From Dipteris shenzhenensis (taxonomy: Eukaryota), in the NCBI GenBank assembly GCA_047967505.1, contig CM106538.1: 64,000 bases of DNA; one strand, written 5' to 3'. The stretch's first letter is position 1; the number at the start of each line of letters is the position of its first letter. Positions 5,434 through 6,389 of this stretch are shown here, one piece after another. The translations under genes were made by a program, and so were the position numbers. A model generated the notes under the pieces. That model searched no databases and was not told the origin of the DNA. It saw nothing but the letters and a program-made list of their open reading frames with translations.

Positions 5434-6389
5434 GTGATGTCCCATAAGCCCACTCCCCAGTCTCATGAGCCTTCTCCTCCTCCCAAGTCCTGTGAGCCCA
5501 TTCCCCAGTCTTATGAGCCCACTCCCAAGCCCCAAGAGCATGAGCCTTCCCCTCAGCCTCAGCATTCCCCTCACCCTCAGCCTTCTTCCCCTCAGCCTTC
5601 CCCTCAGCCTTCCCCTCAGCCTTCCCCTCAATCTTCCCCTCAACCTTCCCCTCAGCCTTCCCCTTGTCCTTCCCCTCCCCATGAGAGCACTCCCCCAATT
5701 GAGCAACATATCTTTGAGAACCTCCCTTCCCCTGAGCCTTCCCCTCCCCATGAGAGGACTCCCTCGCATGAGCAAAATGTATTCGATAACCTCCCAGACA
5801 TAGAGAGGCTTCCTAAGGTCCAACAGACTGTTAGGAAGAGCATAATCTTCCCTCTCTCGGTGATACAGCTCATCGTGGAAATGGCACTTGTGGCCATAAA
5901 GAGGGTAAAGTAGATGCCGAGGAAGCCCCATCCCAAAGAAGGACAAAGCTCAGGACATCTACGAGAGGAGGATTCGGAGAAGGATCAATGCAAAAAAGAG
6001 TAGCGCAAGAAATTTAAGGCAGACAGGAGGCTGTGGGACCATGTTTGGGTACCTACTATAAAGCCTCCACTAAGAGTCAGGAAGCCATACAGAGTGAAGC
6101 TAGGAGCACAGGCCCTAAGGTAGATCAGACAAATGTAGAAGATGACCGACAAACTAATCCCGCATGCTCCCTTCGAATGTGGGGTATGGGAGATAGCACA
6201 AGGATACAAGGACGATGTATGATTTAGCACAGGAGCTATGGGGGCGCTCCAGGAGGCTGAGGAGCAAGTGACCACCATTCTGCTCAAGGACGCCAACTTT
6301 TGTGCCATCCACACAAAGCACGTCACAGTCATGAAAAGGACATGGCTCTAGCAAAGCGGCTATGGAGTGACCCAAGCTTGAAGCCCTAG
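5434..6389 (+). pseudogene. Decayed ORF: Pro/Ser/Gln-rich repeats, two H3-tail-like motifs, C-terminal divergent histone H3 fold
   Basis: Reading through stops in the frame of ORF 5434-5913 gives RKPYRVKLGAQALR*IRQM*KMTDKLIPHAPFECGVWEIAQGYKDDV*FSTGAMGALQEAEEQVTTILLKDANFCAIHTKHVTVMK-(fs)-DMALAKRL, colinear with H3 KPHRYRPGTVALREIR...[21 protein letters not shown]. The true 5' end is probably further upstream. Confidence 0.88.
5543..5663 (+). repeat. 12-bp coding minisatellite (CCTTCCCCTCAG)n encoding PSPQ
   Basis: Directly visible tandem copies; a further ~69-bp duplication follows (5668-5795). Confidence 0.9.

Follow-up and report, generated by a model that had tools for sequence, protein, structure and literature searches.

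What is a reading frame that yields a complete histone H3 fold only when its stop codons are read through? The frame in question lies in a 64,000-nt stretch of Dipteris shenzhenensis DNA (GenBank assembly GCA_047967505.1, contig CM106538.1), which we call the window and which looks like land-plant DNA, with several Ty1/copia elements and an intact pentatricopeptide-repeat (PPR) gene. An initial annotation described the locus as the dead copy of an H3 derivative borne by a mobile element, with a long proline-rich extension and two imitations of the H3 tail. Sequence comparison leads us to a different emphasis: positions 5779-6389 (+) are probably a pseudogene from an uncharacterised, divergent family of histone H3 variants. 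Members of this family have an ordinary H3-type fold, an intronless coding region and a tail of about 100 residues or more. Their hallmarks are an internal KQTARKS resembling H3 residues 4-10, the string RKKFK.D.RPW...KPPL directly before the alpha-N helix, LIP(R/H)A(A/P)F, and a C-terminal R.RSD.(A/S)L(R/K).

An H3 fold in an interrupted frame

For domain searches, the frame 5323-6391 (+) was translated with X at its seven stop codons. This read-through frame matched the Pfam Histone family (PF00125; E 3e-16, 60.2 bits against a cut-off of 26.4) over residues 251-339, which correspond to nt 6073-6339. In a phmmer search of PDB chains, 174 distinct sequences matched it at E ≤ 0.01. The best 60 of the 174 are H3 or H3 variants throughout, and the best alignment (E 6.4e-20) runs without gaps over residues 251-342, loop 1 included. 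Named proteins among the further homologue matches were H3 or CENH3. The initial annotation had read a full H3 fold behind the stops and proposed comparing it with the histone hidden Markov model; both the Pfam model and the ungapped PDB alignment confirm that fold. The locus has the following parts.

5779-6389, + strand: H3-like pseudogene, the part colinear with relatives, with five in-frame stops and one 1-nt deletion
5779-5841, + strand: conserved tail start VFDNLPDIERL, then PKVQQTVRKS (in P0278, a relative introduced below, LFEGLGDIQDL...PIKQTARKS)
5899-5925, + strand: KRVK*MPRK, unsupported as an H3-tail-like or family motif
6004-6072, + strand: pre-fold family motif RKKFKADRRLW...KPPL (in relatives, RKKFKNDKRPW..KPPL and RQKFTHERPPW)
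6073-6335, + strand: alpha-N helix and histone fold, ungapped against H3 at 47-52% identity
6336-6389, + strand: end of the C-terminal helix and family-type extension, KDMALAKRLWSDPSLKP-stop, in the +2 frame after the 1-nt deletion
6479-6484, + strand: AATAAA, 90 nt downstream of the stop codon

The proposed single frameshift near the end of the fold was also correct. One base is missing at about 6333-6337, and the last 17 codons need a 1-nt shift. In the shifted frame the stop codon is 6387-6389, and the peptide that precedes it aligns with the C-termini of the relatives, RDLRLATRIRSDPALRH-stop. The genuine stops within the gene are at 5911, 6001, 6121, 6136 and 6220, while those at 6349 and 6379 are artefacts, seen only when the frame is read beyond the frameshift. 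With five in-frame stops and the deletion, the copy does not have the intact open reading frame (ORF) of an H3 gene.

Replication-dependent H3 genes are intronless, and the coding region here is intronless too. The locus further resembles canonical H3 (H3.1/H3.3) in having a fold of equal length without gaps and a KQT.RKS cassette. It differs in that the tail of the window copy and its family is about 100 residues long rather than about 40, the cassette is internal rather than N-terminal, LIPHAPF stands in place of LIRKLPF, a C-terminal extension stands in place of RIRGERA, and the window copy is dead. Because it has neither the tail architecture nor the intact ORF of canonical H3, we do not count it as a canonical member.

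We found neither the poly(A) tract nor the target-site duplication of a processed pseudogene: there is no A-run after the AATAAA, and no direct repeat flanks the H3-like unit. The interval 5147-5810 contains no TATA motif and, except for one CCAAT, none of the plant histone promoter motifs that were looked for. An Rfam scan of the window gave 0 matches, and blastn and tblastn found no second copy of the unit in the 64-kb window.

A tail shared with long-tailed relatives

HMMER searches covered 1.84 billion representative proteins, of which 5628 matched at E ≤ 1e-3; among the best 150, identity never exceeded 52%. The best match in a single stretch, a protein we call P0023, reaches 30 residues into the tail (query residues 25-143). 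A word-index search from P0023 yielded 233 candidates, and 200 of these proteins reached E ≤ 1e-3. The 200 include 15 close clusters at 90% identity, comprising 36 distinct sequences 76-100% identical to P0023; the more distant matches include named plant CENH3 at 53-57% identity. The close set (P0023, P0276-P0287, P0323 and P0390) derives from metagenome-assembly contigs, all of them short (0.5-2.2 kb) and of one source class. A profile search was dominated by double-H3 fusion proteins and added only P0088, which lies on a run-assembly contig. Histone is the sole Pfam domain of the relatives. Thirty-six sequences in 15 clusters would fit a multi-copy family.

The evidence that carries the family reading lies outside the fold. 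With the fold left out, the tail matched P0023 at E 1e-5 and P0088 at E 7e-4 in BLASTP, and the window frame 5323-6063 matched residues 1-121 of P0278 at E 7e-7, which is beyond chance even allowing for the roughly 350 proteins looked through. The P0278 alignment begins at the V of VFDNL, paired with P0278 residue 2, and LFEGLGDIQDL...PIKQTARKSVIGPV of P0278 is colinear with VFDNLPDIERLPKVQQTVRKSIIFPL of the window. P0278 is the sole relative that extends up to the F..L.DI..L and KQTARKS region. Taken over the P0023 set and P0088, the elements F..L.DI..L, KQTARKS, RKKFK.D.R.W, KPPL, LIPxAxF and R.RSD..L. are colinear with those of the window copy. Within the fold, the window has LIPHAPF where the relatives have LIPRAAF and H3 has LIRKLPF, and the window copy and relatives have in common an Ala at the position of H3-T107. 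The C-terminal extension reads RLWSDPSLKP-stop in the window and RIRSDPALRH-stop in the relatives. In all, about 110 tail residues outside the fold are colinear with relatives, and on the strength of these alignments the earlier view that this is more than a simple H3 pseudogene stands.

One of the two proposed H3-tail imitations belongs to this shared tail. When 127,942 six-frame positions across the window are compared with ARTKQTARKS by ungapped BLOSUM62 scoring, PKVQQTVRKS (5812-5841) comes first (score 26, the next being 23). Its colinear counterpart in P0278 is PIKQTARKS, where a perfect KQTARKS, identical to H3 residues 4-10, is internal (residues 17-25). In the window the motif is a degenerate cassette, identical to ARTKQTARKS at 5 of 10 positions, and it is not an N-terminal H3 tail; the RKS-to-RKPYR spacing is 79 codons in the window copy versus 30 in canonical H3. 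The other imitation, KRVK*MPRK, fell away. Against the relatives' LKRVRTKTTP segment it gave no BLASTP alignment at E ≤ 100, and in Smith-Waterman comparisons with 2000 shuffles it was significant for one of four relatives (9/2000), in a differing register, the other three giving 1206, 1448 and 585 of 2000. By eye, and without statistical support, the relatives' (R/K)TKTT(P/S) recalls H3 residues 2-6. P0088 opens with MARTKQTARPS and has a differing, acidic extension of about 200 residues.

The tail also bears on how long the lineage was a gene. The window copy is without some 20-30 residues of Ala/Ser-rich linker found in the relatives, and its length differences from P0278 fall into several blocks (22 gap columns in 111), with the frame kept from 5779 to 6335. 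Because all of these length differences are in frame, we infer a lineage that was a selected gene for most of its divergence and died later.

We scored decay against the residues of eight aligned relatives over 173 codons. The window copy agrees with them at 79 codons (46% identity) and differs at 94, made up of 33 multi-step differences, 37 transversions, 18.8 C>T or G>A changes and 5.2 reverse transitions. Its distance from the relatives is mostly old divergence, not decay, and a deamination skew is present. Two of the stops, 6136 and 6220, are a single C>T or G>A step from the family residue, whereas 6121 needs a transversion and 5911 and 6001 are at least two steps away from the residues of the eight relatives. 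The earlier statement that many lesions are C-to-T or G-to-A changes is thus confirmed in part, by the skew and these two stops. Methylated, transposable-element-like DNA had also been taken as a mark of this locus. The observed/expected CpG ratio is 0.41 in the H3-like part, 0.33 in the whole window and 0.36 in the intact PPR gene; because the whole window and the PPR gene are depleted as well, CpG depletion is not specific to the H3-like locus.

We also built a maximum-likelihood tree (LG+C20+F+G4; 51 rows, 114 columns) from the window copy and 50 proteins hand-picked from 413, those left out being mostly canonical-like or fused H3. The window row grouped with eight P0023-type rows at 98/92*. 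Nine plant CENH3 rows, all of them angiosperm, formed a separate clade at 100/100* together with an ungrouped Persea row (P0380), and the window and family rows fell outside it. The placement of P0088 was without resolution.

Several observations weigh against the family reading. The tree alone is not decisive, since the branch leading to the window copy (1.33) and that of the family (0.83) are both long, and its bootstrap was not settled. The approximately unbiased (AU) test keeps a tree in which the window row joins 11 canonical and grass H3 rows (lnL 16.2 lower, p 0.199). The 46% identity to the relatives is about the same as the identity to canonical H3 within the fold. The relatives are known as predicted proteins on contigs of 0.5-2.2 kb, and gene calling may be the cause of some N-terminal truncations among them. 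An AlphaFold2 model of P0277 from a 5-row alignment (pLDDT 56, pTM 0.25) adds nothing. The open frame of the tract upstream, taken up below, counts in the same direction. Given the AU test and the long branches, and since the tree columns hardly include the tail, family membership rests mainly on the homology of the tail and C-terminus, which is hardly represented in those 114 columns.

Other searches touched the same family. The structure atlas (ESM Atlas) returned only generic H3 clusters for P0023 and P0088, and our literature search found no description of a long-tailed H3-like family. A 159-aa read-through query gave 5 matches among 11 candidates. Three of the 5, P0002, P0003 and P0005, have the VWEIAQ and CAIHTKH strings of the window copy; their R>W, A>T and R>H changes look convergent, as CpG deamination makes them, and these proteins look like independently decayed H3 copies that were called as genes. 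H3-like folds also occur on six giant-virus contigs (L001-L006, IMG/VR bins), at 30-51% identity to the profile of the relatives. In five of the six, the match falls on the fold portion of the query, and that of L004 spans query residues 28-184, reaching the tail.

The flanks and the upstream tract

The locus lies amid LTR (long terminal repeat) retrotransposons, two of them nested directly to its left. The features around it are these.

1-4847, - strand: Ty1/copia body with a 1333-aa gag-protease-integrase-reverse transcriptase ORF running off the window (Pfam gag, integrase and RVT_2 on the ORF 1-3999(-))
4836-4847, - strand: copia primer-binding site (PBS) TGGTATCAGAGC, a perfect tRNA-Met match
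4848-5146, - strand: copia 5' LTR, 299 nt (alignment with four other LTR copies; loose ends of contigs from sequencing run X1 at 5146)
5147-5280, - strand: LTR fragment of a second copia family, split by the insertion at 5146 (junction alignment)
5378-5795, + strand: nested tandem arrays with periods of 21/48, 12 (CTTCCCCTCAGC = PSPQ) and 69 nt (TRF; repeat families D1-D3)
6569-6761, no strand assigned: palindrome resembling a miniature inverted-repeat transposable element (MITE), with 56-nt arms, 79% complementary, 81 nt apart
8011-8667, - strand: copia-type gag remnant (Pfam Retrotran_gag_2, E 1e-20; domain at 8011-8433)

The copia element at 1-5146 looks young; X1 contigs match its LTR region at 99-100%. 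In the older LTR fragment, 5188-5280 matches positions 2-90 of another LTR pair in the window, 13645-14354 / 18468-19202, at 73%. Because no polypurine tract lies directly beside the start of this fragment at 5280, we read the sequence from 5281 onward as flank and not as element interior. On the right, the MITE-like palindrome begins 180 nt after the H3-like stop codon, and no PBS, LTR or pol remnant was detected adjoining the gag remnant.

The initial annotation had placed the locus in transposable-element-like DNA and on a mobile carrier, and the surroundings are indeed rich in LTR retrotransposons. A six-frame Pfam search of 5001-14000 found only Histone and the copia gag remnant, with no transposase. 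No pol remnant turned up in 5147-13645 when the copia polyproteins of the window served as tblastn queries. Neither repeat searches nor sensitive blastn over 5147-13600 found a terminal inverted repeat (TIR), LTR pair or Helitron-like end enclosing the H3-like unit. The LTR insertions at 5280 and 5146 cut its left flank, and the sequence that once continued past them falls outside the window. With no enclosing repeat pair or transposable-element (TE) domain, and with the left flank lost to nested insertions, a carrier element cannot be defined.

It is nonetheless conceivable, if doubtful, that the H3 derivative travelled as a passenger of a mobile element, either as a captured or transduplicated gene or as an accessory ORF, and that the window holds one dead copy among many dispersed ones; this is compatible with the family reading. 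The 15 clusters of 36 sequences on short contigs of one source class could be such copies, and their variation is rich in C>T/G>A-type changes. Among 35 relatives compared with their consensus, 222 of 3497 compared cells differ. The commonest changes that fit deamination are R>H (13), A>T (13), A>V (10), R>Q (9), R>C (7), D>N (7), P>L (5), E>K (5) and T>M (3), and these nine classes make up 72 of the 222 changed cells, where cells count sequences and not events. Frameshifts occur in two relatives, and the stop codon is gone from one. A frameshift shared by P0281 and P0390 was dropped as a candidate since the shift positions differ, and internal-Met ORF starts were dropped as proof of decay, since they may be alternative starts of a prokaryotic gene caller. 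X1 contigs 87-94% alike at both ends of the unit (5668-5825 and 6378-6466) hint at paralogous copies in the organism of that run. Run X1 contains 0.07 of the words of the window, and its depths were not taken as copy numbers; aligned to 4800-7000, it gave no cover over 5910-6279, which is uninformative either way.

Such capture has precedents. A hAT transposon is reported to have captured and amplified canonical H3 in Dothideomycete fungi, to tens to hundreds of copies (Dhillon et al. 2019, PMC6710886). The fungal case resembles the window in that H3 coding sequence occurs as dead, point-mutated copies in repeat-rich DNA. It differs in having a defined carrier and a canonical H3 source, whereas the window has a divergent variant with its own conserved tail and no carrier defined. 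Duplication by TE capture is also mentioned for gymnosperm giga-genomes, in a paper that gives only 'histone H3 (PD)' as an example (PMC13477047). The window resembles these in its TE-dense plant DNA, with CpG depletion throughout.

What tells against a passenger is that no TE terminus, TIR, LTR pair or TE domain encloses or adjoins the unit, that each LTR to its left is an insertion of its own, ending at 5146 and 5280 respectively, and that the 64-kb window has no second copy. The variants among the relatives could equally be orthologues from several organisms; a search for the relatives' loci with flanks in metagenome contigs and genome contigs found none. The in-frame length differences would also favour a period as a selected gene over a neutral passenger.

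The tract directly upstream had been taken for a long PSPQ-rich extension of the protein, a claim we do not uphold. The arrays at 5378-5795 are probably non-coding repeat DNA that is open in phase by chance. Across 5323-5775 the stops number 0, 1 and 13 in frames +1, +2 and +3, and 0, 12 and 0 in frames -1, -2 and -3; because several of the six frames have few or no stops, it is mainly the repeat unit itself that keeps them open. The tract has no counterpart in the relatives: P0278 starts where the homology starts, and the acidic extension of P0088 was rejected as a match (best E 7.2). MSHKPTPQS at 5437 was likewise rejected as a decayed MARTKQTAR, being a unit of the 21/48-nt array.

Former translation of the tract (5437-5778) as an N-terminal extension of the H3-like protein is accordingly something we consider unlikely. 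In its favour, the in-phase frame runs through 151 codons without a stop and has an ATG at 5437, and a stop-free in-phase frame occurred in only 93 of 2000 dinucleotide shuffles, which leaves room for a coding role of the PSPQ extension. A 69-nt duplication crosses the junction with the conserved VFDNL, and P0088 illustrates that long N-terminal extensions do occur among relatives. Against this, the homology with P0278 starts exactly at VFDNL, at its residue 2; the extension of P0088 is dissimilar; and the tract consists of tandem arrays throughout, whose units are without stops in 4 of 6 frames.

Elsewhere in the window, 49334-54413(+) is a second copy of the copia family at 1-5146, with both LTRs of about 355 nt (93.5% alike), a PBS at 49686-49697 and broken ORFs; further LTR copies of this family lie at 23796-24148 and 32076-32427. 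A 60-nt-unit tandem array at 41404-42362 (16 copies, 85% matches, higher-order period 119) directly follows the copia element 35477-41404. The PPR gene is an intact, intronless 732-aa ORF at 45387-47585(-), between retrotransposons, and its CpG ratio is like that of neighbouring repeats.

Placement and meaning

Could the locus instead be a pseudogene of CENH3, with P0023 and P0088 as CENH3 orthologues from other organisms? We think this improbable. As in CENH3/CENP-A, a long divergent tail is joined to an H3-type fold; plant CENH3 rows, P0338 among them, look similar at LIPxAPF and at the Ala in place of H3-T107, and the distant matches of P0023 include named plant CENH3. However, plant CENH3 genes are intron-rich, and an internal KQTARKS together with 36 variants is unlike such a single-copy gene. 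The residue at the H3-F84 position is diagnostic for H3 versus CENH3, and Phe is kept there. Loop 1 is of H3 length, ungapped against H3; an extended loop 1 is reported not to be obligatory for CenH3 in all lineages (PMC2995078). Since loop 1 is unextended and the window row lies outside the plant CENH3 clade, membership of CENH3 appears unlikely from these comparisons.

A simple pseudogene of canonical H3.1/H3.3, altered by methylation-driven transitions and resembling the relatives upstream by chance, is very unlikely: within the fold, canonical H3 (47-52%) and the relatives are equally close to it, the canonical placement survives the AU test, and both the deamination skew (18.8 vs 5.2) and the CpG ratio of 0.41 would suit it, but it does not account for tail homology outside the fold (E 7e-7 with P0278, 1e-5 with P0023, 7e-4 with P0088), for a C-terminal extension common to the relatives, for 70 of 94 differing codons being transversions or multi-step, or for the absence of a canonical tail after the first motif, with 79 codons instead of 30 between RKS and RKPYR.

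By its Pfam match the sequence is an H3-class histone, and a pseudogene of a divergent, long-tailed H3 variant family is the reading we retain. To judge from the kept frame, the window lineage would have been under coding constraint for most of its divergence from the relatives. The window copy would have died afterwards, through five premature stops and one frameshift, and it would have no protein function now. An intact family protein would be expected to pair with H4 through its fold and to enter nucleosomes, and its tail might be recognised, perhaps only in part, by the enzymes or readers of H3K4 and H3K9. The decoy or anti-silencing role suggested for the locus is pure speculation, and the sole fact that touches it is the internal position at which P0278, one of the relatives, preserves KQTARKS. 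A broader idea, to which we give little credence, is that plants or the source organisms of the relatives have a class of H3 variants with a long tail and an internal KQTARKS, amplified in repeats, whose intact members would enter the chromatin machinery at repeats or compete for it, for example as bait or substrate for H3K9 methyltransferases or readers, the window holding a fossil of it.

For annotation, the locus offers two lessons. The label 'H3 pseudogene' can conceal a distinct family, and an in-phase, proline-rich minisatellite tract is not a protein extension unless relatives show it. H3 variants are few and well catalogued, and their number would grow by one lineage with a family whose tail architecture is conserved and its own. 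So far this family is known from contig proteins and the fossil in the window, which give a sequence set to look for in large plant genomes. Should repeats turn out to carry it, plants would have a counterpart of the H3 amplified by a transposon in Dothideomycetes, though one built on a variant with a selected tail and not on a housekeeping copy.

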